A DNA stretch of 33,644 nt from Oscillospiraceae bacterium (GTDB lineage: Bacteria; Bacillota; Clostridia; Oscillospirales; Ruminococcaceae), in contig JBJEQM010000180.1 in the NCBI GenBank assembly GCA_051881755.1, positions 1 to 33,644 of the forward strand. The letters are read 5' to 3'. Position 1 is the stretch's first letter, and each line of letters starts with the position of its first letter. The position numbers were made by a program, and so were the translations under genes. Shown one piece after another: positions 11,011 to 29,190 of this stretch. The notes under the pieces were generated by a model. The model did no database searches. It had not been told where the DNA came from and was given only the letters and a program-made list of their open reading frames with translations.

Positions 11011-11018
11011 TAGTACTG

Positions 11019-13017: not shown

Positions 13018-13070
13018 AGTGATCACCTCACAAAGACCAAACTGATCTGTTCATAAAATCCTGTCTAAAC

Positions 13071-14021: not shown

Positions 14022-14154
14022 AAGAAAATTCCTCCGGTTGTAAAATCATTTACATCAACGAGTCAATCGGTGATGTTTTTATGCTATCCTCCCGCCCCAC
14101 CGTATGCCCATAGAGCCGGAGGACAGCATACTGTATAAAAAGCTGCTGTATATG

Positions 14155-14370: not shown

Positions 14371-14443
14371 AATATACTCCTTTTGTATATGCCGCCGTCC
14401 GCGCCGCCCCATTTAAGAAGCGGCGCAATACAGCGGGATAAAA

Positions 14444-15628
14444 TTATCTCTTAAGGTTTACAAGCTCCTCCAGCATGGAATCGGAGGTGGTAATGATTCT
14501 TGCGTTTGCCTGGAAGCCTCTCTGTGTAACGATCATGTCGGAAAATTCATTGGCAAGGTTTACGTTGGACATTTCCAGTCTCTTGGAAATTGTAGTGGCA
14601 GCGCCCTGGTCTCCGGGCTTTCTTACCTTGCCTGCGCCGGAAGCCGCAGACTCGGAGAACGATGTTTCTCCCGCCTCAACAAGACCCTCGGGGTTGTCGA
14701 AAACGGTTACCTCGATACGTGCGATAGCCTTGAGCTGGTTGTTGTATGTAACGGTGATAACGCCGTCGGCACCGATATCGAAAGCGGCAAGGTCGGAATA
14801 TGTGAACTCGCCGATGACAGCTCCCTCGGGCACATCGGCAGGAGCGCCGGCGGCGCTGGGCTCGTATTCGATAGGCTCTCCGCTGTCATCGCGGATAGGC
14901 TCGCCCTTAAGGTTGCAGAGCACGGGATCCTCCGCTGTGAGATTGCCATCATCGTCTACCTCGTAGGTCTGATATGTGTAAAGCACGCCGTTTTCGGGGT
15001 CGCTGAAAATATTGTAAGCCCTCTGGATAAGCTCGTTTACATTGATGGTGTTGCCGTAGGTATAGTCTCCTGAAGTAACCTTTCCGTCGCCGTTGTTATC
15101 GCCCAGCTCGACCATCTGCAAAGCCTTTGCGCTGGCGTCGCCCACCTTGATCAGACCGTCAATGGAATTGCAGGAACCCAAAACAAAGCGGTTGGTAGTT
15201 GTAACCAGATTTCCGACGCTGTCCAGACCAAAGTTGCCCATTCTTGTGTATGTAATGGAGTCGGGGCTGGTGGTGTCGGCAGGGAGAGAGCCGTCGGGAT
15301 TGGTGGAGAAGTTAGCCGTAGCAAAGAAGCCGTCGCCGCTGAGAGCGATATCCAGCGTTCTGTTGGTGGACTGGAAAGAAGACTGAGACATATCTCTGTC
15401 GATGGAGGCTACCTGATTACCGTAACCTACCGCCGAAGCGTTATTTCCGGCGAAAGTAGCCGTACCGGCTGTCTCCGTCCTCATGGACTGATAATAAATA
15501 TCGCTGAAAGTAGTTCTTGATGATTTAAAGCCGTATGTGTTAACGTTGGCGATGTTGTTGCCTATAACGTCCATTCTGGTCTGGTGCGTTGTAAGACCCG
15601 CAACGCCCGAATAAAGTGATCTGATCAT
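14444..15628 (-). CDS. flgE: Flagellar hook protein FlgE
   Basis: 394 aa. The N-terminus is MIRSLYSGVAGLTTHQTRMDVIGNNIANVNTYGFK. The C-terminus is EFSDMIVTQRGFQANARIITTSDSMLEELVNLKR. AAGGAG lies upstream of the ATG. Confidence 0.92.
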   Translation of the reverse strand: MIRSLYSGVAGLTTHQTRMDVIGNNIANVNTYGFKSSRTTFSDIYYQSMRTETAGTATFAGNNASAVGYGNQVASIDRDMSQSSFQSTNRTLDIALSGDGFFATANFSTNPDGSLPADTTSPDSITYTRMGNFGLDSVGNLVTTTNRFVLGSCNSIDGLIKVGDASAKALQMVELGDNNGDGKVTSGDYTYGNTINVNELIQRAYNIFSDPENGVLYTYQTYEVDDDGNLTAEDPVLCNLKGEPIRDDSGEPIEYEPSAAGAPADVPEGAVIGEFTYSDLAAFDIGADGVITVTYNNQLKAIARIEVTVFDNPEGLVEAGETSFSESAASGAGKVRKPGDQGAATTISKRLEMSNVNLANEFSDMIVTQRGFQANARIITTSDSMLEELVNLKR

Positions 15629-15736
15629 AGTAAGTAAAACACTCCTTAATAATACTGTTAAGGAAGCGCGTTTCCGTCCGTCTGTCGTTCGGGACGGAGT
15701 GATCTCCGTAAAGGTCCGATCATGTTTTTATGCGCT

Positions 15737-16162
15737 TTACATTATAACAGTGGAATCAATATTTGTAAAAATGCTTCCCTGCATATCGTCCGCCGTAAGA
15801 GTGGTAATGACCTTATTGTTCTTTACGCTGACGATAAACGCCGTAGAATCGATCATAACAAGCGCGTCGCTGCAGCCCTTTTCGTCTGCAAGCTCAACAG
15901 CCTTGTTGAGTCTTTCGAGAGTATTATCGGAATCCAGGTCTATATTCCGTTCCGATATTCTTTCAAGTGCGTGCCGTGAAAAGCTGACGCCCGATCCTTC
16001 GGCGATCCTGTTTTCGGCAAGCTGAGAGCGGAGCTCCTTAGCAAAGCCGCTGTTTTCGGGACTCGGGGCTTTATCCGTATCCTGTTTGGGATAAACGGCT
16101 GTCGTTCCCGTTGTGACCGACAGATTACGCATTTGCAGGTATTCATTGATCAACATCTGCAT
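15737..16162 (-). CDS. Conserved 'flagellar operon protein' of the kind found between flgD and flgE (TIGR02530-like)
   Basis: About 141 aa. The segment VSFSRHALERISERNIDLDSD and the flgD-X-flgE position match the small Firmicute/spirochaete family. The start is set at ATG 16162 (AAGGA upstream). The ORF-track GTG at 16165 is one codon earlier. Confidence 0.65.
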   Translation of the reverse strand: MQMLINEYLQMRNLSVTTGTTAVYPKQDTDKAPSPENSGFAKELRSQLAENRIAEGSGVSFSRHALERISERNIDLDSDNTLERLNKAVELADEKGCSDALVMIDSTAFIVSVKNNKVITTLTADDMQGSIFTNIDSTVIM

Positions 16163-16180
16163 CACCTGTCCTTATAAATT

Positions 16181-17836
16181 TCATACCTCCACAACATTTA
16201 TACCGTATGAGACAAGCTGCCTCTTGAATGAAGCCATTGAAGCTACATCCGAAGCGCTGTGCTGCTGAGAATGATACCTGATGACCGTTTCAAACGGGGT
16301 AAGATCCTTCAGAGAGCCGGGAGCCGCATTGGGATTGCATATCTCGTCAAGGGTGTAATCTCCCGAAGTGCGGTACCAGCAGGAATTGCCGTTGTCAAGG
16401 ATTATCTCCACGCGCTGTGTGCCGTCCTCAAAGGTAACTACCTCGCCCAGACGTCCCACGCCGCTGTAGCCTATCTCGGTAACAGCCTCGCCGTTTATGG
16501 TCCTGCCAATGACCTCGGAGGTATCTATTCTTGAAGTAATGGCGGTATTGTTGATAAATCTTATGTCATACATTCTTGTGCCCAGCGAATCGGCAAGAGC
16601 CGCTTCTTCGGGATATTCGTCCGCATAAAGCCTGTGGGGCTCGCAGTCCGAAATGGAAATGCCGGGAAGTGTGTCCGACTGTACCTCAAGACCGTATCTT
16701 GAGCTGTATCTTGTCTTGTATGTATCGTCTGCCAGAATAGCCTTTACCTGATTGTTGGTCAGGATACCGGAGATATTGCCGTCCCTTGTTGTTGAAGCGA
16801 TGTAATCGGCATTTTCCAAGGTAAGCTTTACATCATAATTGCCCGCTCTGAGAGGGGTATTGTCCGAAACCGACGAACGTGAGGAACCGATGCTTCCGTC
16901 CGGCTCAATGCTGAGGGTTGAAAGCAGCTCGTCCTGCTCTGCGAAAACCGCAGCCGCATAATCGGGAACGTCAAGATACTTCACCGTGACCGTTTCATAG
17001 CCTGTGATGTCGGGAATGATATCGCTGACCGACTCAACAGTCGTTTCGGTCTTTCTGCCGCTGATGGAATCAATGGTGCTCATAAGCTCGTCGTAAAGAG
17101 CCGCCGACTGAGCCGCATAATTGGGAGTTGCGACCTGCTCGGTGTAATTCTCCACCGCAGTAATGCTTTCATCGGCAGTATCATTTTCGGTCTCATCGCC
17201 GTTTTCCTCGTTATCCTCGGAAGAGCCGTCATTAATTTTAATAGTGACCTCGCTGAGGGAGTGTATGCTGCTGTCCTCAAATATAACGAAGCCTTCGCCG
17301 TTAAGGATAAGTATGTTTGTTACCTTGCCCGTCTCGATGATATCGCTGCCGTCGGCACCTGTGGTCTTTGCCTCCATTGTTGCGCCGATAAGGGATTCCA
17401 TCTTTGAGAATATGTCGTCCGAAATAATATCGGATACCTTGGAGTATTCATATCTGTTGCCGTTTACGATAAGCATGGGCTTGTTGTCCTCTATAACTAC
17501 CGAGGATACAACTCCCGTATCGTATTCGTAGCCGTCGTTTACCGTAACAGCCTTGCCCACAAGGGAAGTTGCGTAGGTAATGTTGGCTTGGTTTGTCATG
17601 TTCTTGATGCCCTCCAACATGGAGTAGGAGGCCATCTGCTGAAGCATCTCACTGTCACTCATGGGGTTGTTGAAATCCTGATTTGACATCTGAGCGACCA
17701 AAAGCTGGAGGTAGCTGTCAAAATCAAGATAGCTCGAAGCAGCCTCGTCCCCGTTAAGATCGGTAGTGGAGTTGCTGTATTTTGAATACGCTCCCGTCAC
17801 CGTGTCAAGGGTAAGGTTGTTTATGCTGTCGCCCAT
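16181..17836 (-). CDS. flgD: Flagellar hook-cap/scaffold protein FlgD with a C-terminal extension of about 400 aa
   Basis: The N-terminal FlgD signature is LDFDSYLQLLVAQMSNQDFNNPMSDSEMLQQMASYSMLEGI. It is followed by a Tudor-like segment LVGKAVTVNDGYEYDTGVVSSVVIEDNKPMLIVNGNRYEY. The total of 551 aa is far beyond typical FlgD. AAGGAGG lies 7 nt upstream of the ATG. Confidence 0.85.
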   Translation of the reverse strand: MGDSINNLTLDTVTGAYSKYSNSTTDLNGDEAASSYLDFDSYLQLLVAQMSNQDFNNPMSDSEMLQQMASYSMLEGIKNMTNQANITYATSLVGKAVTVNDGYEYDTGVVSSVVIEDNKPMLIVNGNRYEYSKVSDIISDDIFSKMESLIGATMEAKTTGADGSDIIETGKVTNILILNGEGFVIFEDSSIHSLSEVTIKINDGSSEDNEENGDETENDTADESITAVENYTEQVATPNYAAQSAALYDELMSTIDSISGRKTETTVESVSDIIPDITGYETVTVKYLDVPDYAAAVFAEQDELLSTLSIEPDGSIGSSRSSVSDNTPLRAGNYDVKLTLENADYIASTTRDGNISGILTNNQVKAILADDTYKTRYSSRYGLEVQSDTLPGISISDCEPHRLYADEYPEEAALADSLGTRMYDIRFINNTAITSRIDTSEVIGRTINGEAVTEIGYSGVGRLGEVVTFEDGTQRVEIILDNGNSCWYRTSGDYTLDEICNPNAAPGSLKDLTPFETVIRYHSQQHSASDVASMASFKRQLVSYGINVVEV

Positions 17837-19239
17837 AATTTAGCCTCCTTTAATAATCTGTGCGCCCTGATATCGTCTGCCGCGCCGATCTCCTCAATAG
17901 CGGAAGAATTTCTTGCCGAGCCGCGGTTTCCGCCGCCCTGTTCACCGTTTCTGCGGTCAAAGCTGCGGTTTGTGAAATCCAGACCCATAAAATCAGCCGC
18001 CTCGCTGGGATTGATAACGTTAACGCTGTCCACCGTGACGTTCTGCTTGTTCAGGCTCTCCGTAAGAGCGTACGCGTTCTCGGTGATAGCCCTGCCTATC
18101 TCTGGATTTGAAGCCGCCATAATAACGGATATCCTGCCGTCGCTGTCCTGTGAAAGCTTAACTGCGATCTCGCCAAGACTTTCGGGCTTGAGCACCACCG
18201 TCCGCTCCTTAACGCCGTCCTGGATGGGTGAGCTTATTTCCTCAACAAGCTTTTCCGTCAGCTGCCTTGAAGCATATGTCCAAAGCTCGCTGTAAACATC
18301 GGTCTCTGTGCTTTCCGGAGCGATATCAGCCGCAATTCTCTCCGCGTTATGCTCTCCGCCGCGGATAACGTTAAGCTGTACAGCCGCGTCCATTATCTTC
18401 AGAACAGGTCTGCTGTCCGCCATGCTTCTGCCTGTCTCGGGACGGGATAAAAAGTCCGCGAATTTCACAACGTTTTTATCCTGCTGCTCGGGAGCCTTTA
18501 TTATATCCTCCACAGCCTTGGCAATATCCTCGGGTGTCTTGTCGGAAACCGTCTCCTTTAATATACCGCCCAGCTTTTCAACCGAAAATTCGGTGACTTC
18601 CGTCTCGGGAAATTCAAAGGTATCGCCGCGGTCAATGCCTGTGATGCTGCTTAAAATATCCAGCAGAGCGTTGGCAAACGCTTCAAGATCCTCGTCGTCG
18701 CTGTCCTCGGGAGATATGGTCTTGACCACCTTTTTCACAATTTCCAAAGGCGGCAGTTCTTCTTCCGTGCCCGCTTCGATGGCGTCGGCTATCTTATCAA
18801 TGATATCGGCAGCCTGCTCCTCTGCGGTGAGCTCCTCTCCCTTTTGCGGCATAATGCTTAACAGCATACCGAAAACGGAGGTCACATCGCCGTCGGTCTC
18901 GTCCTCGTCGGTATCGCCGCTTTTTGACGTACCCATGAGCAGCTCTACGACTTTTCCCACGGTCTTGAGCATTTCCACAGCCGCCCTGATAACGTCCTCG
19001 CCCGCCTCCGCGATCTCCTCTTTAAGCTCGCTTGTAAGCTGCGCAAAGGTGACCTTTTCGGCGTCCTCCGCCGTATCGGCAATATCCGTTTCGGCAGAAG
19101 CAGTCTCTACAGCCGCGTTCACCGTCTGAGATAAAACGTCGCCGAAGCTTATACCGCTGTCCGAAACAGCCATGCCGCCGCTGCTTATGCCTGCCGTACC
19201 AAGAGCGACATTCAGCATACTTAATGCGCTTGTGTCCAT
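17821..19239 (-). CDS. fliK: Flagellar hook-length control protein FliK
   Basis: 472 aa with an acidic, low-complexity N-terminal two-thirds. The C-terminal Flg_hook-type domain is VVLKPESLGEIAVKLSQDSDGRISVIMAASNPEIGRAITENAYAL. It lies between fliJ and flgD and its 3' end overlaps flgD by 16 nt. Confidence 0.85.
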   Translation of the reverse strand: MDTSALSMLNVALGTAGISSGGMAVSDSGISFGDVLSQTVNAAVETASAETDIADTAEDAEKVTFAQLTSELKEEIAEAGEDVIRAAVEMLKTVGKVVELLMGTSKSGDTDEDETDGDVTSVFGMLLSIMPQKGEELTAEEQAADIIDKIADAIEAGTEEELPPLEIVKKVVKTISPEDSDDEDLEAFANALLDILSSITGIDRGDTFEFPETEVTEFSVEKLGGILKETVSDKTPEDIAKAVEDIIKAPEQQDKNVVKFADFLSRPETGRSMADSRPVLKIMDAAVQLNVIRGGEHNAERIAADIAPESTETDVYSELWTYASRQLTEKLVEEISSPIQDGVKERTVVLKPESLGEIAVKLSQDSDGRISVIMAASNPEIGRAITENAYALTESLNKQNVTVDSVNVINPSEAADFMGLDFTNRSFDRRNGEQGGGNRGSARNSSAIEEIGAADDIRAHRLLKEAKLWATA

Positions 19240-19299
19240 TTTCTTTACCCTCCTTTCATTATATAGTATATATGGAAAACCTTTTTAAAGGGTATTCCC

Positions 19300-19737
19300 T
19301 TATTTATAGGTGCTGTTCATAACGTACTCCGAAATGAACCGCTCCTCCTCCTTGGCAGCCATGAATTTGTATTCCTCCAGCTGCTTTTCCTCCAGCTTTT
19401 CAAGAGAGGATACCTCCTGAGTTGCGGCGACCACAACATTAAGCTGCTTGCGGACCTTGACCTCCATCTGCTCGATAGACTTTTCAAGCTCCTCTATCTG
19501 CTGTGAAAGGGACTGATGATATCCCTTGAACATTGTTATCTGCAAAACCGTCATGCCCTTGCCCGACTTCTCACAGAACTCCTCGTTGGATCTTTTCAGC
19601 TTTTCCCGAAGCTCATTCTGCTCGTCCATCATCTGCTGCTGTCTGCTGCGAAGCTGCGCAAGGCTGTTTTTTTCTACCTCCAGCACCTGCTCTTTGTATC
19701 CCTTTAACTTGTTAAGGGAAAATTCAAAACGCTTCAC
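19300..19737 (-). CDS. fliJ: Flagellar export chaperone/stalk protein FliJ
   Basis: 145-aa coiled-coil protein rich in E/K/Q/L, directly after fliI. It has a GTG start with GGGAGG 7 nt upstream. Confidence 0.75.
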   Translation of the reverse strand: MKRFEFSLNKLKGYKEQVLEVEKNSLAQLRSRQQQMMDEQNELREKLKRSNEEFCEKSGKGMTVLQITMFKGYHQSLSQQIEELEKSIEQMEVKVRKQLNVVVAATQEVSSLEKLEEKQLEEYKFMAAKEEERFISEYVMNSTYK

Positions 19738-19752
19738 ACAAAGACCTCCCGA

Positions 19753-21057
19753 TTACTTCACTGCGTCTTTCAGCATCTGTACGGTCTCCTCAAAGGTGAA
19801 CGCCTCGTCGGTCTCCTGCTGCAGAAACGCGTTTATCTTGTCTATTTTCTTCAAAGCCTCGTCCAGCGCGGGGTTGGAGCCCTTTTTGTATGCGCCGATG
19901 GAAACAAGGTCGTAGTTTGCATTATATACCGAGAGAAGATTTCTCAGCTTAGCCGCCGCCGCTTTATGCTCCTTGTCGGCTATCTCCGCCATAAGTCGGG
20001 ATACGGATTCCTGTATCTCGATAGCGGGATAATGGTGCTTTGCGGCGACCTTTCGCGAAAGAATGATATGTCCGTCAATGATACCGCGGACGGTATCGGA
20101 AATAGGCTCGTTGGTGTCATCGCCCTCAACGAGCACGGTGTAAATGCCTGTGATAGAGCCCTGTTCGAAGTTTCCCGCACGCTCCAGCAGCTTCGGCATA
20201 GCCGTGTATATGGACGGCGTGTAGCCTCTCGCGATAGGCGCTTCACCTACCGCCAGACCTATCTCACGCTGCGCCATGGCGTATCGCGTAAGGGAGTCCA
20301 TCATCAGCAGTACGTTTTTGCCTTGGTCTTTGAAATACTCCGCAATTGCCGTTGCGGTCATGGGGCACTTGTTTCTCATCATGGCAGGCTGGTCGGACGT
20401 TGCGACTACCAGCACCGAACGCGCCATGCCCTTTTCACCAAGGTCGCGCTCGATAAACTCCAGTACCTCTCGTCCACGCTCACCCACAAGAGCGATCACG
20501 TTGATGTCCGCCTGTACCTCTCGGGCTATCATGCCAAGCAGGGTGGATTTACCAACGCCCGAGCCAGCGAAAATGCCCATACGCTGTCCCCTGCCGATGG
20601 TCAGCAGACCGTCTATCGCCTTTACGCCGAATGGTATGATGTCCTCGATACGGGGTCTGGTCAGCGGATTGACAGGCTCGCCCACAATGGAGTATTTGTC
20701 CGTGGTCTCCACAGGACCCTTGCCGTCCAGCGGCTGACCGATAGCGTTGATTATGCGCCCGATAAGTCCGCTGCCAACGTTTACTTCAAGCTGTCTGCCC
20801 GTGTTGTCAACAATGGAGCCGGGGCCTATGCCCTCGATGTCGGTGTAGGGCATGAGCATTATCTTGCCCTCGTTAAAGCCTACAACCTCGCCATAGATAA
20901 ACTCCTCGGAGCCTTTGCGGAAAATGCGGCATACATCGCCGATATTACATTCAGGGCCGGTCGCCTCAACGGTCATACCGATAATTTTTTCAATTTTTCC
21001 CTGCCGCCTGTAAAGGTCGGCGTCTGTGACCTTTCGGCGTATCTCTGCAAAATCCAT
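19753..21057 (-). CDS. fliI: Flagellum-specific ATPase FliI
   Basis: Walker A is FAGSGVGKSTLLGMI and Walker B is VLLMMDSLTRYA. The overall pattern resembles an F1-beta-type ATPase. I prefer the ATG at 21057 (GGAG upstream) over the TTG at 21090 used by the ORF track. Confidence 0.92.
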   Translation of the reverse strand: MDFAEIRRKVTDADLYRRQGKIEKIIGMTVEATGPECNIGDVCRIFRKGSEEFIYGEVVGFNEGKIMLMPYTDIEGIGPGSIVDNTGRQLEVNVGSGLIGRIINAIGQPLDGKGPVETTDKYSIVGEPVNPLTRPRIEDIIPFGVKAIDGLLTIGRGQRMGIFAGSGVGKSTLLGMIAREVQADINVIALVGERGREVLEFIERDLGEKGMARSVLVVATSDQPAMMRNKCPMTATAIAEYFKDQGKNVLLMMDSLTRYAMAQREIGLAVGEAPIARGYTPSIYTAMPKLLERAGNFEQGSITGIYTVLVEGDDTNEPISDTVRGIIDGHIILSRKVAAKHHYPAIEIQESVSRLMAEIADKEHKAAAAKLRNLLSVYNANYDLVSIGAYKKGSNPALDEALKKIDKINAFLQQETDEAFTFEETVQMLKDAVK

Positions 21058-21111
21058 AGGCTCTCCGTGTTTACTTTTTGTATATATCAAATATATTGTA
21101 CTATCTGTATA

Positions 21112-21957
21112 TTACTGCTCTCCCCGCGTATTTTTCAGTATCTCCTTGAGGAAATCCAGCTGGGTGGGGACGGAAGCGTCCACTATCTCGTCGTTGTCAT
21201 CCAGGATAATGGTGCCCTCCTCCGCGTCGGGGAGTATCTCAATGTCAATGTCCTTGATGTAGGGTATCAATTCCCTTATAAAGCGGTCGTCGGTCTTTAT
21301 CTTTCGGGAGACCTCGCCGTCCGCAAGGGATATCTTTATATAATCGGAATTGCGGAAGCCCTTTGCCGCGTCCGCGATTATCCTCTCGATGACCGCAGGG
21401 TCGGTTTTCAGCTCCGCCTTTGTTATCTTTTCCACCATAAGGAACAGGGTCTCCCGCAGCTCCTTTTCGTTGGATATATAGTATGCGTCTTTCCGCGAGT
21501 TAATGTCGGAGAGCAGACCTGCCGCGGCGTCGATGTACTTGGAGCATTTTTCAAGGGACTGCTTTTTGCCCTCGTCAAAGCCCTCCTTGAAGCCCTCCGC
21601 CTTGGCTTTTTCCTTTAATATAGCACATTCCCTGTTGGCGCGCTCGATCACGGAAGCGGTGGTGGCTTTGGCTTCGTCTGCCAATGCCGACGCCGCCTGC
21701 TTGGCGCCTTCGAGGATATTTACGCGCTCCTGCTCGGTCTCGGCGCGGCGCGCTTCGATTATCCTCGTGACCTCGGCGTTGACCGCCTGCGAGAAGCGCT
21801 GCTCCTCCGCCGCCTTTTCCTCCTGCCTTTTGCGGAGTATCTCATCGTCGGAGAGGGTGTCCTCAACCTCGTCGCAGGGAACGATTATGGTATTATCTAT
21901 CTTGACAGGCTCGCTGCCTCCGAAGCTGTAGCTCTGCGGCTTGTAAACCTTATGCAA
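21112..21957 (-). CDS. fliH: Flagellar assembly protein FliH
   Basis: 281 aa with an E/A/K/R-rich central coiled region (QEEKAAEEQRFSQAVNAEVTRIIEARRAETEQE) and a C-terminal globular part. It sits between fliG and fliI. The TTG start overlaps the fliG stop, so the start position is uncertain. Confidence 0.75.
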   Translation of the reverse strand: MHKVYKPQSYSFGGSEPVKIDNTIIVPCDEVEDTLSDDEILRKRQEEKAAEEQRFSQAVNAEVTRIIEARRAETEQERVNILEGAKQAASALADEAKATTASVIERANRECAILKEKAKAEGFKEGFDEGKKQSLEKCSKYIDAAAGLLSDINSRKDAYYISNEKELRETLFLMVEKITKAELKTDPAVIERIIADAAKGFRNSDYIKISLADGEVSRKIKTDDRFIRELIPYIKDIDIEILPDAEEGTIILDDNDEIVDASVPTQLDFLKEILKNTRGEQ

Positions 21958-22960
21958 TTATCTCGTCCTCTCCGCCCTTGCCGATAACGATATCTCCCTC
22001 TTCCTCAAGGTGTCTTATGATGCCGACGATTCTCTGCTGAGCCTCGTCGACGTCACGCATACGCACGTTGTGGAGATATTCGATCTCCTGCTGGATAGTC
22101 TCCTGCATTCTCTGAGGCATATTTGCATAGAGAACAGCGGCGACCTCGGCGTTGGAGCCTTTGATAGCAACTGCCAGATCCTTTGTCTCCACGTCTCTGA
22201 TAAAGCGCTGGATAGACATGGAATCCAGACCGAGGATATCCTCGAATACGAACATTTTCTTCTTGATCTCGTCCACCAGAGCGGGGTCTTTGGTAGACAG
22301 CTCGTCGAAGATGTACTTTTCCGTACCTCTGTCCACCTTGTTGAGGACGTCGGCAACGAAGTTGATGCCGCCCACCTCCGCAAGGTCCATGGAGACAACC
22401 GCCGCGAACTTTCTTTCCAGCGTGCTTTCGATAGCCTTGATAGTCTCAGGCGACGCGGACTCCATCTTCGCGATTCTCTCAACGACCTCCACGCGCTTTT
22501 CCTTAGGCAGCTCCTGCAAAACGGCGGAAGCCTGCTCCGACTTGACGTAGGACAGCACCAGCGCGATAGTCTGGGGATTTTCATTCTGTATAATGGCAAG
22601 CAGATTTTTGTAGTCCGACTTTCGTACAAACTCGAACGCCTTTGTCTGCATTGATTTCGATACGCGTTCCATAAGCTTTGCAGCCATTTCGGGACCGTAT
22701 GCCTTTTCCAGCACCGACCTTGCGTAGTCAACGCCGCCCTCGGTGATGACCTTCTGCGTCAGACAAAGCTCATAAAATTCGTTGAGCACCGCGTCAACGG
22801 TCTCAATATCAAGATAAGGGAGGCTGGAAATTTCGTAAGTCAGCCTTTCAACGTCGTCGTCGCTGAGCCGCTTATAAACGTATGCGGCATTCTCCGCGCC
22901 GACGGAAGTAATAATGATAGCCGCCTTCTGCATGGAAGTAAGCTCTGTAATATCGGGCAT
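21950..22960 (-). CDS. fliG: Flagellar motor switch protein FliG
   Basis: 336 aa, with the conserved MFVFEDI segment and the charged C-terminal torque helix region. The ATG overlaps the fliF stop by 1 nt (TAATG). Confidence 0.92.
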   Translation of the reverse strand: MPDITELTSMQKAAIIITSVGAENAAYVYKRLSDDDVERLTYEISSLPYLDIETVDAVLNEFYELCLTQKVITEGGVDYARSVLEKAYGPEMAAKLMERVSKSMQTKAFEFVRKSDYKNLLAIIQNENPQTIALVLSYVKSEQASAVLQELPKEKRVEVVERIAKMESASPETIKAIESTLERKFAAVVSMDLAEVGGINFVADVLNKVDRGTEKYIFDELSTKDPALVDEIKKKMFVFEDILGLDSMSIQRFIRDVETKDLAVAIKGSNAEVAAVLYANMPQRMQETIQQEIEYLHNVRMRDVDEAQQRIVGIIRHLEEEGDIVIGKGGEDEIIA

Positions 22961-24588
22961 TAGTCGTCTTCGTCCTCCTTCATCCAGTTTTTAAGCAGCT
23001 GAGCCACAATATCGGGGCTGTTCTTGGCAAACTCGCTGATCTCTCTTCTGATAACGACTTCCTTTGTCTCGTTGGAGTCGTCCGAAAGGCTGGGCACCTC
23101 CACGGGCTGACCGTCCAGATTGAGGGAGAACGTATCCACGATCTCGCCCGACGAGCCGTCCTCCGCCGCGCTGGCAAGAAGCACCTGCTCCTCGAATTTT
23201 CTCCTCTTGACCTTGGCGTTGTTGGAAGCGATAACAAGAGCCACAATGAGAATAATGATAAGTATGAGCAGTATCGCCGCCACGATAACAAGCTGATTAA
23301 AGGTAAGACCGAAAAGATATACGGGCTCTGCCGGTTCAAGACCGATAGACTCGTCAAATTTCGGAAAGTTCGTAACGGTCACGACGTCCTGCGCCAGCTC
23401 GGGGTTAACGCCGCCTGCATTGGCTACAAGATTTACAAGGTCAAGCTTCTGCGCCTCGGAAATGTAATCGGTGTATATTACTACCGCAACGGACAGACCC
23501 TCTATTTCGTAGCCCGCCTTTTCTATCTGCTCTTTATATGTATCAACAAGGTATGTGTTGGAAGCGGAGGTCTCCGACCATGCGCCGCTTCCGCTCGTGT
23601 CGCCTGTGGGATAGGTGTCGTCTGCGTTGGTCTCAACGCCGATAACGCCGCCCTCGGCTGTGGTGCCGCCGCTGGCGCTGGAAGCGTCTCCGTGCTGGAG
23701 CACGCCCGTGTTGCCGTTGCCGTCGGCGGAGTAGTTTGTGTTTTCCGATACCTTTTTGTCAAAGTCCAGCACCATATTTACCGCAACGGATACGCCGTCA
23801 TTGGAATAGATAGGCGTCAGCAGCTCCAGTATCTTATTCTTTATGGTGTTTTCAAGATTTGTCTTGAACGCCAGCTTTCTTGTAACGTCCGCGACAACGT
23901 CCACAGTGGTCTCACCCGCTATCTGGGGGATACCGTTCTGATCGGTAATGGAGATATTCTCCTCCGTAAGTCCGCCGTAGCTCATCTGTACGATATGGGT
24001 GATACCCTCTATCTGCTCGTTGGAAAGCGTAGCGTTCTTTGCAAGATATACCACGACCATCGCGGTAGGATACTTCTTCGACGTTGTTATGACCGTGTTG
24101 CTCTGCTCCGGGAGATAAAGGGTAACAGTCGCCCTTTCAACGCAATCCAGCGAGCTGACTATGGCGCTCAGACGATTTTCCAGCGCCATTCGGGCATATT
24201 CGCGCTTCTCCGATTCCGTGGAGAACATATCCACATTCTGCGTGTAAACGTCATATGTAAGATTGCTCTTCGGATAGCCCATCTGCGCCATCTGCATGGT
24301 CAGGGTATCCTCGGTGCCCTTGGGGACTGTGATAGTGCCGTCCGATTTAAGGTTTACCTCATAGCCCAAAGTCTGTATCTGCGAGACTATCTCCGAAGCC
24401 TCGGTGGTCTCCAGACCCTCGTAAAGCACAACATAATCTTTTCTGTTGAGCACTATAACGACAATGACCGCAATAAGCACTATCGCCGCAAGGATAACGA
24501 TATATAAAATTTTTCTTTTCTTTTCCTGGGCGTCCCAGAATTGCTTGAAAGAAGCAGTAAGCTTTTTAAGCTGTTCTTTCATATCCAT
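22960..24588 (-). CDS. fliF: Flagellar MS-ring protein FliF
   Basis: 542 aa. It has an N-terminal TM (ILYIVILAAIVLIAVIVVIVL), a periplasmic ring domain, a second TM (LVIVAAILLILIIILIVALVI) and a cytoplasmic tail. Confidence 0.9.
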   Translation of the reverse strand: MDMKEQLKKLTASFKQFWDAQEKKRKILYIVILAAIVLIAVIVVIVLNRKDYVVLYEGLETTEASEIVSQIQTLGYEVNLKSDGTITVPKGTEDTLTMQMAQMGYPKSNLTYDVYTQNVDMFSTESEKREYARMALENRLSAIVSSLDCVERATVTLYLPEQSNTVITTSKKYPTAMVVVYLAKNATLSNEQIEGITHIVQMSYGGLTEENISITDQNGIPQIAGETTVDVVADVTRKLAFKTNLENTIKNKILELLTPIYSNDGVSVAVNMVLDFDKKVSENTNYSADGNGNTGVLQHGDASSASGGTTAEGGVIGVETNADDTYPTGDTSGSGAWSETSASNTYLVDTYKEQIEKAGYEIEGLSVAVVIYTDYISEAQKLDLVNLVANAGGVNPELAQDVVTVTNFPKFDESIGLEPAEPVYLFGLTFNQLVIVAAILLILIIILIVALVIASNNAKVKRRKFEEQVLLASAAEDGSSGEIVDTFSLNLDGQPVEVPSLSDDSNETKEVVIRREISEFAKNSPDIVAQLLKNWMKEDEDD

Positions 24589-24622
24589 AGCTTATGATGT
24601 TTCCTTCCCGAAAATAGTATAG

Positions 24623-24934
24623 TTACATAGTGATCTGGAGCGTCTGGTTATAAGCGTCGACAGCCGCGTTTTTCACCGCCACGAATGTTTCCACGGCGAT
24701 GGAAGCCTTGGTCATGTTATTATATATTGTATGCAGGTCGTCGATATCGCCCTGGATTATCTTTATGGCGTCAGCCTGAGTCTGCGCCTGAGTCTCCTGC
24801 ACATCGGTGAAAATATCGCGGAAAACATCGGAAAATTTTGGGGTGTCCTCCGATATCTCGGAGACCTGTCCGTTATCCTTGTCGAACAGGGATTCAACGG
24901 GAGAAATGCTGTTTGAAATAGGTACTATAAACAT
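24623..24934 (-). CDS. fliE: Flagellar hook-basal body complex protein FliE
   Basis: 103 aa in the flgB-flgC-fliE order. The C-terminal segment ASIAVETFVAVKNAAVDAYNQTLQITM is typical of FliE. No SD sequence is found within normal spacing of the ATG. Confidence 0.85.
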   Translation of the reverse strand: MFIVPISNSISPVESLFDKDNGQVSEISEDTPKFSDVFRDIFTDVQETQAQTQADAIKIIQGDIDDLHTIYNNMTKASIAVETFVAVKNAAVDAYNQTLQITM

Positions 24935-25047
24935 ATTTTTATATCAAGTATGCCCGAGGGCATACACTCCTTTCATTTTCAATAAGGGACTTGCCCCGTC
25001 ATTTAACGTGAGCAAGGCACGGCAAAGCCGTGCTGCCCTAAGTTATA

Positions 25048-25536
25048 TTATCTGCCGTTCAGGGACATCGCCTTTGTCAGCATGGATTTTACCGCCGAGA
25101 GCGCCGAAGCGTTGGCTTCATAGTTGCGCTGCGCCGCAAGCAGGTCTATCTGCTCCTTGGTGTTGTCCACGTTGCTTCTGTAGACATAGCCCTCCTCGTC
25201 GGCAAGAGGGTTATCCGGCTCGTAGACGGGAACGAAAGGCGCGTCGTCGTTGATGACCGCCGCAACGGTAACGCCTGCGTACTTGTACTTTGTCCTGCTG
25301 CCGAGGTAATATGTGCCGCGGCTGTACTTGGGACCCTCCGCTTCCTCGTATGTGCTCAGCACATCGCTGAACTTTTTCTTTTCGGAGAACACCGTCAGCT
25401 GACGGCAGTATGGATCCTCGCCCACGGCGGTGTTGTAGTTGTTCTGGTTAGCGATATTCTGCGTGATGACGTCCATTCTGAGACGCTGAGCCGAAAGGCC
25501 CGAGCCGCATATATCAAGCGAGCTTAAGAAAGACAT
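25048..25536 (-). CDS. flgC: Flagellar basal-body rod protein FlgC
   Basis: 162 aa. The N-terminus is LDICGSGLSAQRLRMDVITQNIANQNN and the C-terminus is LLAAQRNYEANASALSAVKSMLTKAMSL. GGAGG lies upstream. Confidence 0.92.
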   Translation of the reverse strand: MSFLSSLDICGSGLSAQRLRMDVITQNIANQNNYNTAVGEDPYCRQLTVFSEKKKFSDVLSTYEEAEGPKYSRGTYYLGSRTKYKYAGVTVAAVINDDAPFVPVYEPDNPLADEEGYVYRSNVDNTKEQIDLLAAQRNYEANASALSAVKSMLTKAMSLNGR

Positions 25537-25550
25537 TCATATACCTCCCT

Positions 25551-25928
25551 TTACTTTGAGATAGCCGCGCGTATCATGCTGTAATTGGTGTTCATATGAT
25601 CCAGCAGCGCGCTGTACTGATACTGCACGTCGGCAAGGTCGAGGGCTTCCTTTTCCATATCGACGTTATTGCCGTTAAGGAGCAGGTCGGTGTTGGTCTC
25701 CACAGTGGTAGTGACGGTCACCTTTGGCTGTTTTGTCTCCTTATCATCGGGGGTATGATATTTGCAGCGGCATTTTTCCTCAAGGATAATGCCGAATTCA
25801 ACGGTTTTCGCCTTAAAATCGGGCGTAGAGGCGTTGGCTATATTATTGCTTATGACCTGCTGCTTGTACCATGCAGCGTCCAGTGCCTGTTCGGACAGGC
25901 TTTGTACTGTTCCGTCAAAAAGACCCAT
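25551..25928 (-). CDS. flgB: Flagellar basal-body rod protein FlgB
   Basis: AWYKQQVISNNIANASTPDFKAKTVEF is the rod N-terminal signature. The start is set at ATG 25928 (GGAGG 7 nt upstream), not the ORF-track start at 25988. Confidence 0.88.
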   Translation of the reverse strand: MGLFDGTVQSLSEQALDAAWYKQQVISNNIANASTPDFKAKTVEFGIILEEKCRCKYHTPDDKETKQPKVTVTTTVETNTDLLLNGNNVDMEKEALDLADVQYQYSALLDHMNTNYSMIRAAISK

Positions 25929-26016: not shown

Positions 26017-26045
26017 ATTATACATCAATCACTTCCAAATTTCAA
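26017..26045 (-). promoter_or_regulatory. Candidate sigma-A promoter of the flagellar operon
   Basis: The minus strand reads TTGAAA (26040-26045) - 17 nt - TATAAT (26017-26022), about 90 nt upstream of the flgB ATG. A second, weaker candidate TTGAAA-17-TATATT lies at 26096-26124. Confidence 0.5.
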
Positions 26046-26183
26046 GCAACTATTACAAAATAATAAGAAAAACATACAACAAAAATTCACGAAAAAATAT
26101 ATTAAATTTCTCTAAATATTTCAACAGAAAGAACGACGCAACAAAAAAAGACCATATTTTGTATATATTTTTGTGCAAAAAGC

Positions 26184-26210
26184 AAAAAGACCTGCATCAA
26201 ATGCAGGTCT
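26184..26210 (-). terminator. Rho-independent terminator of the pilZ-parA-comFB operon
   Basis: A perfect 10-bp stem, agacctgcat (26188-26197) / atgcaggtct (26201-26210), with a 3-nt loop. On the minus strand it is followed by ttttgcttttt. It lies 9 nt past the ComFB-like stop. Confidence 0.85.
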
Positions 26211-26219: not shown

Positions 26220-26750
26220 CTATTCATGAACAGGCAATTGTCGTCTGCCTATAGCAATTTTAACCAATGCGCTCATTACCGACGGACGGTTCTTGGTGCG
26301 TATCTCTTCGGCGCGCTGCAGGTCGCTGCTGTTTTCCACCTTTACGTTGACCTCTGGGACGGTCTCCAGCGCGTCCGTCATGGCTTCGGCAAAGCATTTG
26401 CCGCATTTGCAGCAGTGGAATCTGTCCAGTACCGACGGCAGAAGCTCGGCGATAAGCTCGGAGCTGATATGTATCTCCGTGACCTGCTCCTCCTTGGGCA
26501 GCTCGGGAACAGCCTGAGCTGGCTCGCTGTATACGGGCGCCGCCTGTGGGGTATCGTTCTGTACGGGAGCTGTCTGAGCAGGCTGCGGAGCGGCGCTTTC
26601 CTGCGTGCTCTCGCGGGCGGCACGCTTGTCCACAATGACCGACTGCTTGAACTCGTTGTCCAGCATGGGATTGACCGCAAGGTTGTTTCCCGTCAGCAGC
26701 CGCATTACAGCTTCCGTTTTATGTGTAGATTTTCTTGCAGTAGTAAACAT
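26220..26750 (-). CDS. ComFB-domain protein with a P/Q/A-rich N-terminal region
   Basis: The C-terminal roughly 85 aa (ELIAELLPSVLDRFHCCKCGKCFAEAMTDALETVPEVNV...) resemble the ComFB family helix-CxCxxC-helix pattern. The N-terminal part AAPQPAQTAPVQNDTPQAAPVYSEPAQAVPELP looks disordered. The start is set at ATG 26750 (GAAAGGAAA upstream). The ORF track uses TTG at 26768. Confidence 0.6.
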   Translation of the reverse strand: MFTTARKSTHKTEAVMRLLTGNNLAVNPMLDNEFKQSVIVDKRAARESTQESAAPQPAQTAPVQNDTPQAAPVYSEPAQAVPELPKEEQVTEIHISSELIAELLPSVLDRFHCCKCGKCFAEAMTDALETVPEVNVKVENSSDLQRAEEIRTKNRPSVMSALVKIAIGRRQLPVHE

Positions 26751-26775
26751 AGGAACGTTTCCTTTCAATGGGCGG

Positions 26776-27537
26776 TTAATCGTTTATCTCGGGATAAAGA
26801 TACTCGCATACCCTTGTATAATCCCGCGAAGCCTTGCAGCGCGGAGAATATGATGTAATGACCATCTGATGCGCGGGAGCCTCGGCGACTGCCACGGAGG
26901 AAGCGATCTTGTCCTCCAGCACCACCGTGCCCAGCTGCTTGGCGACGATCTCCACCATTTCCGCCACCTCCACCGCAAGGGTCTGCTTGGCGGAATACTT
27001 TGTCAGCAGTATGCCGCGTATATTAAGCTTTTTGTTGTAATATTTCTTCACCGCCAGAATGGTCTCGCGCAGCTGCGCAATACCCTGTAAGGACAGTATC
27101 TCGGGGGTCATGGGTATGATAAGGTCGTCGGCGGCGGTATATGCGTTTATGGTAAGTATGGACAGCGCGGGAGGCGTGTCGATAATGATATAGTCATACT
27201 CGTCGCGGACGGTTTTCAGTATCTCGCGGAGTATGAACTCGCGGCGCTCGCTGGTCAGCTCCAGCTCGCTGCCCGAAAGCAGGATATTGGAGGTGATAAC
27301 GTCGCATATGTTGGTGGTCTTTATGGCGTCGCGGATATCGCAGTCGCCCTTCATAACGTCGTGTATGGTATATCCCCTGTCCTCCGTGCCGAGGGAAAAG
27401 GAAAGGTTGCCCTGAGGGTCCATATCTATTGCAAGGACGGATTTGCCCCTGCTTCTGAAAATGCCCGTAAACGCCGCGCAGGTGGTAGTTTTTCCTACGC
27501 CGCCCTTCTGATTTGTAACAACAATAACTTTAGCCAT
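26776..27537 (-). CDS. Orphan ParA/Soj-type P-loop ATPase
   Basis: 253 aa. The deviant Walker A is NQKGGVGKTTT, followed by LAIDMDPQGN and Walker B YDYIIIDTPPAL. No parB-like gene is adjacent. Confidence 0.85.
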   Translation of the reverse strand: MAKVIVVTNQKGGVGKTTTCAAFTGIFRSRGKSVLAIDMDPQGNLSFSLGTEDRGYTIHDVMKGDCDIRDAIKTTNICDVITSNILLSGSELELTSERREFILREILKTVRDEYDYIIIDTPPALSILTINAYTAADDLIIPMTPEILSLQGIAQLRETILAVKKYYNKKLNIRGILLTKYSAKQTLAVEVAEMVEIVAKQLGTVVLEDKIASSVAVAEAPAHQMVITSYSPRCKASRDYTRVCEYLYPEIND

Positions 27538-27552
27538 ATTATTCCATTCCTA

Positions 27553-28218
27553 TCAATATGCTCTCTTGCTTTTTTCGTTTCTCATGCGCTCGCGCTCGAT
27601 AAGCTGACATTCCAGAATAAACCTCGCCAGACGCTCCTCCTGCTGTGAGGTGACGTTGAGGAAGCGGCAGCCGTAGCCGTCCACCTCGTCGGTATCCTGA
27701 ATTTTCTGCACTCTCAGCACCTCTGCCAGAAGCTCCATTTCCCCGTCGAGGAAGTTCAGCATGACCTGATCCTCGGGTCGGAACTCAAACTCCGAGCGCA
27801 GGTAAGCTCCGCCGATATTAAGGTTGACAAAGTCCACGCAGATAGGCGAATCAAAGGTGCACATCTCCCCGTCGCGGATATAGAACGGCGAAGTGCCCAC
27901 AAACTGCACATTTATCTTGAAGTACCGTCTGCGCTCCTGAAGCGCGATGCCGTCGCCGACGTGAAAATTTATCTGATATTCCGTGCAAAGGTCTACCGAT
28001 GTGGAATATTTCATTCTTGCGCCGTTGAGATACTCGAAAATGACGTCGATATACTCGTCCTTGGTTATAAGCGGAAAATCCGCGCCCTTGAGCATTACAA
28101 GATCCTTGCCCCTTATGCCGAAGAAGTCCTTGGGGAAATAGACTGATTTTGTCGTCAGCAGCAGTTTTCCGTTGCGGTCGTATATCATGACCTTGTTTAT
28201 TTTATCTTTGTTTATCAT
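27553..28218 (-). CDS. PilZ-domain protein, YcgR/MotI-like two-domain architecture
   Basis: 221 aa. The C-terminal half has the PilZ-like motifs QERRRYFK (RxxxR-type, last position Lys) and VNLNIGGA (D/NxSxxG-type, Ser replaced by Asn). The N-terminal roughly 90 aa form a beta-rich domain, as in YcgR-N/MotI. Confidence 0.7.
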   Translation of the reverse strand: MINKDKINKVMIYDRNGKLLLTTKSVYFPKDFFGIRGKDLVMLKGADFPLITKDEYIDVIFEYLNGARMKYSTSVDLCTEYQINFHVGDGIALQERRRYFKINVQFVGTSPFYIRDGEMCTFDSPICVDFVNLNIGGAYLRSEFEFRPEDQVMLNFLDGEMELLAEVLRVQKIQDTDEVDGYGCRFLNVTSQQEERLARFILECQLIERERMRNEKSKRAY

Positions 28219-28282
28219 TCAAAATATCCCCCGGGCAAAGCTTTTGATTAATCGTTTAAGGCGTATATTATCCTAATATATA

Positions 28283-28311
28283 ATTATAGCTAAAAAAATT
28301 ATATTTTGCAA
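28283..28311 (-). promoter_or_regulatory. Candidate sigma-A promoter of the pilZ-parA-comFB operon
   Basis: The minus strand reads TTGCAA (28306-28311) - 17 nt - TATAAT (28283-28288), about 65 nt upstream of the pilZ ATG. Confidence 0.5.
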
Positions 28312-28449: not shown

Positions 28450-29190
28450 ATGCGCAAGACCATTCATGCCAGCGAAAAGCGCATACTTGGCAGATATAAC
28501 CGCAGAATGATCATCGCCTGTCTCCCCGGAGCGGCGGCGCTTATATCAATACTTATCATTGTGCTGCTTTTTTACGTTATCTCTCCCGACGGAGTGTCCG
28601 TACCCTCCGTGCTGAATCGTATCATAATATACGGTACATATTTCTGCGTCGCCTACCTTTTCATTGTATGTCTCATCGGCTCTGTAGTTTCGGATATCCT
28701 GCTGAAAGCTCACCGCGAGCATACTTATATCGAGATAAACGACTCCTCGCTTATAGTCTCTCAGCACAGTCAGACCGTTTTCACCGACGGAAAACGGCAG
28801 AGCTACAAAAAGCTGTGGGTGGTGAACCTGAAAAACGTGGAGTATGTGGAATATGCAAAACACACCGTCATCATCGGCGCGCCTGCGCGGTTTTTCCATG
28901 AAAACGCCGACTGGCTCCGCTACGAAAGCACTCCCGACGGCATAGATTTCGACAACTGGTGGTATAATTCCAACGGCGGAAAGAACGTCTCCACCGTGGA
29001 GGTGGCGGATTTCTACGCCCACACCGAGCGTATCGCGGGGCGCATACAATTCTGCTCCGACAAAATAATCGCCCGCGAAGCCCGCCGCGAGCAGTTCCGC
29101 AGGCAGATGCTGGATATTGCAAAAAATACCAAGCACAAGCGCGGTATATCCGATAAGTACGTTCCGCCCAAGCGGCGAAAATTCAGATAA
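28450..29190 (+). CDS. Hypothetical membrane protein (2 TM plus a soluble domain, possibly bacterial PH-like, and a basic tail)
   Basis: 246 aa with AAGGAGGGAG upstream. Two hydrophobic helices (IIACLPGAAALISILIIVLLFYVI and IIIYGTYFCVAYLFIVCLIGSVV) precede a domain of about 130 aa and a K/R-rich C-terminus. I recognise no catalytic motif. The 2TM-plus-PH topology is only a guess. Confidence 0.5.
   Translation: MRKTIHASEKRILGRYNRRMIIACLPGAAALISILIIVLLFYVISPDGVSVPSVLNRIIIYGTYFCVAYLFIVCLIGSVVSDILLKAHREHTYIEINDSSLIVSQHSQTVFTDGKRQSYKKLWVVNLKNVEYVEYAKHTVIIGAPARFFHENADWLRYESTPDGIDFDNWWYNSNGGKNVSTVEVADFYAHTERIAGRIQFCSDKIIAREARREQFRRQMLDIAKNTKHKRGISDKYVPPKRRKFR

Follow-up and report, generated by a model that had tools for sequence, protein, structure and literature searches.

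Which function joins three genes that encode a PilZ protein, a ParA-like ATPase and a ComFB-like protein and that are packed directly upstream of the flagellar gene flgB? The genes belong to an Oscillospiraceae bacterium (GCA_051881755.1, contig JBJEQM010000180.1), and the DNA analysed, positions 1-33,644 of the forward strand, is a stretch of 33,644 nt referred to here as the window. The original prediction for this trio described two second-messenger receptors bracketing an orphan ParA, which may couple cyclic dinucleotides to flagellar placement, number or rotation. The analysis points, with a probability of about 0.55, to a conserved motility-signaling module of Clostridia linked to cyclic diguanosine monophosphate (c-di-GMP), in which the ComFB-like protein would be the partner of the ATPase and not a second receptor. 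The parts are each in or near known families (PilZ proteins of the MotI type, Soj-class ParA and ComFB), and their combination is new.

A separately promoted unit upstream of flgB

The three genes lie on the minus strand in the order pilZ (gene 1), parA (gene 2) and comFB-like (gene 3), with the coordinates given in Table 1. The gaps between them measure 15 nt and 25 nt, in agreement with the tight packing first described, and flgB follows on the same strand with its start at 25928. Gene 3 has an alternative in-frame start, a TTG at 26768; the ATG used here has the ribosome-binding site GAAAGGAAA.

The promoter claimed for the unit, TTGCAA-17-TATAAT, is present. In the consensus scan it matches 10 of the 12 consensus positions and is placed 64 nt upstream of the pilZ ATG. 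The AT-rich spacer contains 16 promoter-like sites, against 5.0 +/- 2.3 in shuffled sequences. Since such strings are common in the spacer, a single match is weak evidence taken alone. All 19 loci scanned from the same clade (among them L001, L002, L006-L008, L010-L018, L020 and L022; related loci are cited by such numbers) keep the form TTGCAA-17-TA[T/A/C]AAT, 50-117 nt ahead of the pilZ start. In L021 the promoter is a TTGATT variant, and the distant locus L027 has the same form 40 nt upstream of pilZ. This conserved element is read as a phylogenetic footprint.

The perfect 10-bp terminator was also found, just beyond the range that the original prediction had given to the trio. It begins 10 nt past the stop codon of gene 3 and reads AGACCTGCAT-TTG-ATGCAGGTCT and then TTTTGCTTTT (26210..26188, minus strand). 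A comparable hairpin follows gene 3 directly in about seven relatives (L010-L013 and L019-L021), though not in all. The tight spacing, the conserved promoter and the terminator together establish the trio as a real, separately promoted unit.

No c-di-GMP riboswitch, such as the one preceding flgB in C. difficile, is matched by Rfam at gathering thresholds in the whole window, and at E <= 1 the region 25850-28500 gives one chance-level match only. Reading by eye revealed no SigD-type promoter GCCGATAT in the region upstream of pilZ. The close homologues all come from metagenome-assembled genomes (MAGs) of uncultured Oscillospiraceae or 'Ruminococcus'.

The three proteins and the pairing of ParA with ComFB

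The product of gene 1 consists of an N-terminal beta-barrel (residues 1-93), the linker RRRYFK (96-101) and a C-terminal PilZ barrel with a helix (102-220). The PilZ assignment is upheld by the Pfam profile PF07238, which matches residues 96-202 with 42.5 bits (cutoff 22.5) and is carried by 120 of the 120 gene 1 homologues listed. The YcgR/MotI-like architecture also holds at the level of the fold. The AlphaFold2 (AF2) model, with a predicted local distance difference test (pLDDT) score of 88, contains two beta-barrels separated by a low-confidence linker and a long C-terminal helix. In Foldseek, MotI (5vx6) ranks first and is followed by MrkH, YcgR (5y6f), VCA0042 and PP4397; these top matches are all two-domain xPilZ-PilZ proteins, and those to MotI, YcgR and VCA0042 are full-length with probability 1.00. 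A direct sequence search of the PDB with gene 1 returned nothing useful.

MotI (DgrA/YpfA) of B. subtilis and YcgR of E. coli are PilZ proteins that act as c-di-GMP-dependent clutches or brakes of the flagellum. Gene 1 shares their two-barrel layout, the interdomain Arg-rich linker, the C-terminal PilZ barrel with its helix and the position in a flagellar locus. Unlike MotI and YcgR, it has no Pfam match to PilZN (PF07317) or PilZNR (PF12945) even at E <= 1, it carries variant motifs and it stands in one operon with the ParA and ComFB-like genes. The c-di-GMP motifs are non-canonical at both sites. The linker R96-R97-R-Y-F-K101 has a Lys in place of the last Arg (RRxxxK, not RxxxR), and the second site, N132-L-N134-I-G-G, has Asn where [D/N]hSxxG has Ser. 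These states are invariant in 40 homologues and persist in orthologues that are 29-40% identical, including those adjoining diguanylate cyclases; the canonical DLSMGG occurs only in the PilZ copy of L033. A site conserved this strictly is likely to be functional, with c-di-GMP as its predicted ligand.

The product of gene 2 matches the profiles AAA_31/ParA (183 bits), CbiA (87 bits) and BcsQ (35.8 bits, cutoff 21.3), and contains a deviant Walker A motif, KGGVGKT (residues 11-17), and the Walker B motif IIIDTPP. Its best PDB sequence match is 8ray (143.6 bits), the chromosomal ParA of M. xanthus (PMC12462528). The mycobacterial 4pfs (4pfs/5if9) and the Soj proteins of H. pylori and T. thermophilus come next, and then the MinD proteins. 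The ParA/Soj chains score 112-144 bits, compared with at most 85 bits for MinD, and no chain deposited as FlhG is named among the matches better than E = 1e-10. Gene 2 is thus assigned to the Soj/ParA class and not to the FlhG/MinD class. The protein starts with MAKVIVVTNQKGG, without an N-terminal extension, and ends in CEYLYPEIND; judged from the sequence alone, this C-terminus does not look like a membrane-targeting amphipathic helix. Like FlhG (YlxH/FleN/MinD2), which works with FlhF or FleQ, gene 2 encodes an ATPase of the ParA/MinD superfamily at a flagellar locus. Unlike FlhG, it is Soj-class, lacks both the N-terminal activator helix and the C-terminal amphipathic helix, and has no FlhF. 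FleN of Pseudomonas acts together with FleQ, which is a c-di-GMP receptor.

Non-specific DNA binding by B. subtilis Soj needs R189, in the segment NVRL. The alignment with 8ray pairs 'prnvrlse' with 'assvavae' of gene 2, placing an Ala at this position, and the family consensus KIxxSVxxAEAPAH has no Arg there in the whole clade. Within the clade, identity amounts to 85-90% for ParA, 61-74% for PilZ, 39-51% for gene 3 and 89-91% for FliG. The ATPase equals FliG in this respect, which indicates a very strong constraint; in distant lineages its identity is 53-72%. The orthologues of L029, L032 and L023 have C-terminal tails rich in Lys and Arg (GRKKPRKKLY and KKLGRGRPRKLMRPDES are examples), which the window protein does not have and which may be DNA- or membrane-binding appendages.

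The product of gene 3 contains an N-terminal peptide (about residues 8-39), a variable linker rich in Pro, Ala and Gln (about 40-90) and a ComFB-fold domain (91-176), in which the Cys cluster CCxCxxC (113-119) and H175 are both retained. The Pfam ComFB profile (PF10719) scores 13.6 bits, under its cutoff of 25, and 32 of the 39 close homologues also have a sub-threshold match. The C-terminal domain (91-176) is modelled by AF2 with a pLDDT of ~95. Its top five Foldseek matches are all chains of ComFB 4wai (from B. subtilis, BsComFB) and CdgR 8hja (Synechocystis), with a template modelling score normalised to the target of 0.65 and probabilities of 0.95-1.00. An exhaustive profile search with the gene 3 family collected 267 representatives of 50%-identity clusters, and Pfam ComFB is matched by 99 of the best 149 of these 267, with a lowest E-value of 3.5e-41. 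Intermediates bridge CCKCGKCFAEAMTDALETVPEVNV and the canonical CxCxxCxxDvlAlALNxLPPKYV as a continuum. The ParA-linked partners of L023, L027, L035 and L038 carry Pfam ComFB, those of L035 and L038 above the threshold. Direct PDB sequence searches with gene 3 and with the profile of alignment A1 gave nothing useful, and hardly anything new came from a third, word-indexed homology search based on the diverse alignment A5. The sub-threshold matches of the homologues, the modelled fold, the profile search and the intermediates establish divergent ComFB homology. The ComFB-type domain of the original prediction therefore stands as a fold and a distant relationship, and falls short of the Pfam cutoff.

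With ComFB and CdgR (BsComFB, 4WAI; Synechocystis Slr1970, 8HJA), gene 3 has in common the C-terminal fold, the CxCxxC motif and the flagellar-locus position, the homology being transitive through the profile search. Unlike the 98-residue BsComFB, it has an additional conserved N-terminal peptide and a disordered linker, and unlike ComFB/CdgR it is obligately paired with a ParA gene and has most of the ligand and dimer residues replaced. The residues involved in c-di-GMP contact or dimerisation in BsComFB/SyComFB are, by their BsComFB numbers, D33, A36, L37, N40, K/R41, Y46, V47 and Y55 (PMC12448109). The mapping, in BsComFB numbering, is anchored on CxCxxC, has no indels up to V47 and is approximate for Y55. 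In the window protein D33 becomes E122, A36 becomes T125, L37 becomes D126, N40 becomes E129, K41 becomes T130, Y46 becomes N135, V47 is kept as V136, and Y55 becomes ~L144. The states found across the clade are E/Q for D33, D/E for L37, D/E for N40 (N in 2 of 38), A/T/V/S for K/R41, Ser and others for Y46, and L/M/K for Y55. In the 99 representatives without a detected N-terminal motif (judged on the first 60 residues, with some truncated gene calls in the set), D33 is kept in 59 cases, N40 in 67 and Y46 in 76. The window protein thus has the ComFB fold, but it has probably lost the ComFB-type ligand site. Since the known c-di-GMP contacts are lost, the protein of this clade is more likely an adaptor than a second receptor. 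The proposal of two receptors bracketing an orphan ParA is given up for this locus, and is better worded as one probable receptor, a ParA and its ComFB-fold partner.

The N-terminal peptide of gene 3 follows the pattern xKTxxVMxLL...NPxxDxxFK, with K11, T12, L18, N27 and P28 near-invariant (alignments A1 and A5). It is kept down to 22-35% overall identity, and the low-complexity linker after it varies freely in length. The strict motif is found in 93 of 148 representatives, and another group has a related KxxMYxKIMPS. Every gene 3/ComFB relative with enough flanking sequence is placed directly 3' of an orthologue of the window ParA. The relatives looked up were the clade loci and L021, L023, L024 (whose contig holds the ParA C-terminus only), L025, L026, L027, L029, L030, L032 and L033. 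The control for this linkage was seeded with ParA instead: metagenome contigs were scanned with the ParA alignment, and the neighbours were annotated by hidden Markov models built in-house. Ten loci form a distinct group, with at least 310 bits and 47-56% identity. A ComFB gene comes next after the ParA orthologue in eight of the nine loci with downstream sequence. The 70 remaining ParA/Soj-type loci (<= 43% identity) have no such neighbor, so the pairing is a specific trait of this ParA clade. Among the long representatives no ParA-ComFB fusion was found, their extra N-terminal parts being low-complexity Lys/Ser-rich tails.

Tandem ComFB genes directly follow the ParA orthologue in L035 (7732-8934) and L037 (4077-5279); in L035 both exceed the Pfam ComFB threshold. 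The protein P0204, whose N-terminal peptide had been missed by the pattern search, had been considered as a ComFB control and was rejected, since it adjoins ParA and its NCBI gene model, P0313, carries the peptide.

ParA is activated by the N-terminal peptide of ParB, in which an Arg or Lys is central, and much more effectively if a dimer presents the peptide (PMC12462528). Gene 3 shares the layout of such activators, a peptide with a basic residue, a flexible linker and a folded domain (PMC12462528). The conserved Lys-bearing peptide, the linker, the folded domain and the position of the gene after parA together suggest that the ComFB-like protein is a ParA partner. No ParB was found among the window ORFs scanned, and the gene downstream of gene 2 is the ComFB-like one. 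Of the claimed orphan ParA, the class and the missing ParB stand, but the protein is probably not an orphan. Small deviant-Walker ATPases with an adjacent partner gene are known in ParA-ParB, PomZ-PomX/Y, McdA-McdB, ParC-ParP, PpfA-TlpT and MinD-MinE. Unlike these systems, the partner here has the ComFB fold and the pair is co-encoded with PilZ and GGDEF genes.

In the proposed mechanism, the PilZ protein would be the c-di-GMP sensor, with the interdomain RRxxxK linker and the [D/N]hNhGG site binding the dinucleotide, and in the bound form it would act on the flagellar motor in the manner of MotI and YcgR. The ParA protein would dimerise in an ATP-dependent way. The ComFB-like protein would present two Lys-bearing N-terminal peptides on flexible linkers extending from the folded C-terminal domain, and these peptides would bind the ATP-dimer of ParA and stimulate its ATPase, comparably to ParB, PomX, McdB and MinE. 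If dimeric like ComFB, the C-terminal domain would provide bivalency, which is uncertain since the dimer residues are changed. The pair would then set the site of action, or the number of motors acted on, and may substitute for the FlhF/FlhG proteins missing from the operon. A role in the placement, number or rotation of flagella is likewise a proposal; the output may lie in flagellar number or placement, in the recruitment of PilZ or a cyclase to the motors, or in chemotaxis positioning, which are indistinguishable here.

A more specific proposal is tentative. The ComFB proteins with the N-terminal peptide (KTxxVMxLL...NP...FK) would be dedicated activators or adaptors of a previously unrecognised ParA clade. 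Together with the variant PilZ, often a sensor diguanylate cyclase, and a two-transmembrane protein, they would form a Clostridia c-di-GMP system that takes the place of FlhF/FlhG and controls the assembly, placement or activity of flagella. If true, this would also indicate the kind of target on which ComFB acts in motility control.

Neighborhoods in relatives and competing explanations

The co-occurrence of the trio with flgB, which had been proposed for checking across Clostridia, is supported. Among the clade loci reaching past gene 3, the trio is syntenic with flgB in 20 of 21 (in L001-L020 and the window, but not in L021; the contig of L022 is short). The genes flgB-flgC-fliE-fliF follow the trio directly in L001-L020, in the window and in two distant lineages, L023 and L027. 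Most lineages place the ParA-ComFB pair beside flagellar or che genes (Table 1).

The link to c-di-GMP is likewise borne out, as three lineages (L029, L030 and L032) carry a cyclase within the operon, with an intact RFGGDEF motif and a membrane-sensor architecture. In L029 there is a second GGDEF gene, and the module is divergent from flgB-flgC-fliE-fliF. In L035 pilZ adjoins a GGDEF gene, and in L039 a neighbor gene encodes an EAL-HDOD protein. The arrangement of L040 recalls the B. subtilis order, which we take to be comF-yvyF-flgM-yvyG-flgK. In that bacterium comFB lies upstream of flgM (PMC12265714), and in Firmicutes such a location of comFB, ahead of late flagellar genes, may be the ancestral one.

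Several points weigh against a motility module with a c-di-GMP sensor and a ParA partner. The motif deviations could make c-di-GMP binding by the PilZ protein weak or absent. The ATPase has neither the DNA-binding Arg of Soj nor a membrane helix of the MinD/FlhG type, and the surface on which it would be positioned cannot be named. In L034 (2885-4373) a ParA orthologue of 56% identity is followed by a sigma factor of the extracytoplasmic function type and not by ComFB. Much of the synteny with flgB comes from one family-level clade and reflects close relatedness, because the SbcC/Rad50-like gene region upstream is syntenic as well; these loci are not independent. The trio of L021 and the four-gene version of L030 and L032 have no flagellar gene within 7-10 kb. 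The same holds for L042, whose neighbors are lipid-related enzymes. The absence of flhF/flhG is established at the level of the operon.

L021 (673-2631) is the most divergent clade member (PilZ 53%, ParA 72% and gene 3 29% identical), and downstream of its trio are an FMN reductase, a bPH_2 protein and transporters. The trio can move as a unit, since it is kept in these non-flagellar surroundings.

The alternatives differ mainly in what the ComFB-like protein binds and in what the pair would position. A dual-receptor arrangement, in which the PilZ and ComFB-like proteins both bind c-di-GMP and/or cyclic diadenosine monophosphate (c-di-AMP) and feed an orphan ParA in control of flagellar placement or number, is doubtful for this locus. 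ComFB members from several phyla do bind c-di-GMP or c-di-AMP, and BsComFB in complex with c-di-GMP inhibits motility (PMC12448109, PMC12265714). Some ParA-linked ComFB proteins keep the canonical residues, as in the segment NVLALALNTLPTKYV of L033/P0313, and the partners of L035 and L038 exceed the Pfam threshold. On the other hand, the contact and dimer residues commonly kept in the representatives without a detected peptide are replaced in the window clade, in line with the low ComFB score of the window protein. Positioning of chemoreceptor arrays or chemotaxis components instead of flagella, as by ParC/ParP or PpfA/TlpT, is unlikely. In L026 and L033, cheC-cheD come immediately after the pair, in L033 together with cheW-cheB, and the window operon terminates in cheC-cheD; ParA-like ATPases in che clusters are moreover of a known kind. 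However, no CheW-like domain or methyl-accepting chemotaxis protein domain was found in the partner, and in most lineages the neighbors are flgB, flagellin, fliW, flgM, flgK or GGDEF/PilZ genes, not che genes. Flagellar and chemotaxis genes are generally interleaved in Firmicutes, and the proximity of cheC/cheD consequently discriminates poorly.

The adjacency to flgB would be accidental if the genes formed a general c-di-GMP output module outside motility, serving for example exopolysaccharide secretion or cell-cycle control. The model for such an output is BcsQ-BcsR-BcsE, where an ATPase of the ParA/MinD family, a small partner and a c-di-GMP-binding protein regulate a PilZ-controlled machine. 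Gene 2 resembles BcsQ in exceeding the BcsQ threshold of Pfam, and the loci without flagellar neighbors (L021, L030/31 and L032), as well as the lipid-related surroundings of L042, are consistent with this explanation. It is nevertheless quite improbable. Flagellar or chemotaxis genes adjoin the module, in varied arrangements, in no fewer than nine loci that were retrieved separately and diverge from one another (L023, L026, L027, L029, L033, L038, L039, L040 and L041). No polysaccharide-synthesis genes were seen beside the module, and the window differs from BcsQ-BcsR-BcsE in its partner folds, the lack of cellulose genes and the flagellar context. That the three genes are unrelated neighbors, with the ATPase as a second partition protein of the chromosome or a plasmid, is already disfavoured and highly improbable. 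The best PDB matches are indeed chromosomal ParA/Soj proteins, but there is neither a ParB nor an origin-proximal gene context, the equivalent of Soj R189 is an Ala, and the linkage with ComFB/PilZ holds across contexts down to 29-53% protein identity, when other ParA genes give 0 of 70.

The reading of the ComFB-like protein as a ParA partner within a motility module would bear on a family that was recognised only in 2023-2025 as the third widespread family of cyclic dinucleotide receptors. One paper places comFB genes near flagellar genes in B. subtilis and T. denticola, type IV pilus genes, hfq and a GGDEF gene, and nowhere mentions ParA, MinD or Soj (PMC12448109). BsComFB acts as an inhibitor of flagellar function, and its target there is not known (PMC12265714). 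The window and about 20 related loci genetically tie a Clostridia ComFB subfamily to one ParA-like ATPase and link the subfamily recurrently with PilZ, GGDEF/EAL and flagellar genes; this provides a testable candidate partner and pathway. If true, ComFB would be a new partner fold for ParA/MinD positioning systems. The pair is also a possible answer to how flagella are controlled in flagellated Oscillospiraceae without flhF/flhG in the flagellar operon; the host organisms are abundant gut commensals with immunologically relevant flagellins. In full-text literature searches of incomplete coverage, covering ComFB with ParA, operons of ParA-like, diguanylate cyclase and PilZ genes, and flhG/PilZ/fliA in Clostridia, no account of the module was found, in keeping with the claim that the module is undescribed as a unit.

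The flagellar operon and other genes of the window

Table 1. Coordinates of the features of the window and gene order of the ParA-ComFB loci in relatives
Feature	Sequence	Position	Strand	Description
Gene 1, PilZ protein	window	27553-28218	minus	221 aa
Gene 2, ParA ATPase	window	26776-27537	minus	253 aa
Gene 3, ComFB-like protein	window	26220-26750	minus	176 aa counted from ATG
Trio promoter, sigma-70-type	window	28283..28311	minus	TTGCAA 28311-28306, 17-nt spacer, TATAAT 28288-28283
Trio terminator, intrinsic	window	26188..26210	minus	perfect 10-bp stem, 3-nt loop, T-rich tail; terminator scan
Flagellar/chemotaxis operon, flgB to cheD	window	107..25928	minus	Pfam scans, promoter scan
246-aa membrane protein	window	28450..29190	plus	divergent from pilZ; no known family
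Trio	L023, L027			pilZ-parA-comFB-flgB...
Pair	L025			parA-comFB
Pair	L026			parA-comFB-cheC-cheD; ParA 55% identical
Pair with pilZ-like gene	L033			flgG-fapA-pilZ-like-parA-comFB-cheC-cheD-cheW-cheB; Clostridiales Family XIII MAG
Four-gene version	L029	4306-10067		pilZ-[dCache/PAS-GGDEF]-parA-comFB
Four-gene version	L030 (L030/31)	3422-7486		pilZ-[dCache/PAS-GGDEF]-parA-comFB
Four-gene version	L032	556-4637		pilZ-[dCache/PAS-GGDEF]-parA-comFB
Pair	L038			flgK-flgL-DUF6470-fliW upstream of ParA-ComFB pair
Pair	L039			convergent with flhA-fliA-flgG-flgG-cheC-cheD operon end
Pair	L040	642-6297		flagellin, parA, comFB, 96-aa unknown gene, flgM, flgN, flgK
Pair	L041			fapA and flagellin adjoin pair

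The flagellar operon begins with flgB, flgC, fliE, fliF, fliG, fliH, fliI, fliJ, fliK, flgD and a gene for a 'putative flagellar' protein. These are followed by flgE, motA, motB, fliM, fliY, cheY, fliO, fliP, fliQ, fliR, flhB and flhA, and then by fliA, two rod genes of the flgF/G type, cheC and cheD. Two of these genes are assigned by position alone, fliH (21112-21957, no Pfam match) and fliQ (in the gap 7619-7935). The promoter scan gives two candidate flgB promoters, at 26045..26017 and 26124..26096.

As originally stated, flhF and flhG are missing from the operon; the Pfam scans detect neither gene, and the sigma factor gene fliA directly follows flhA. The same junction without flhF/flhG is seen in the window (2799-5674, minus) and in L039 (6775-7985), which belongs to an unrelated lineage and has the ParA-ComFB pair as well. 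In these two cases, considered at the level of the loci, the gap may reflect functional replacement by the pair. The operon order matches the published motility locus of [Eubacterium] siraeum V10Sc8a, which begins at flgB, has fliA between flhA and flgF, contains cheC and cheD as its only che genes and has cheD as the most distal gene (PMC3720852). Because of this match, a cultured relative may be available.

The membrane protein encoded divergently from pilZ has two predicted N-terminal transmembrane segments (hydrophobic windows from residues 19 and 57) and a cytoplasmic domain with a DFDNWWYN motif, and belongs to no family in Pfam or NCBIfam. Homologues lie divergently 5' of pilZ in the clade and in L023 (35% identity), L027 (33%), L029 (24%) and L032 (partial). 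It is probably the fourth member of the module, and perhaps its membrane anchor.

The gene at the fliH position (minus strand) encodes 281 aa. The FlgD homologue (16181-17836, minus) is unusually long, with 551 aa, and the FlgD profiles match its N-terminal part only. After the two-transmembrane gene lies a gene for an SbcC/Rad50-like ATPase of 916 aa (29202-31952, plus), which is syntenic in most clade loci.

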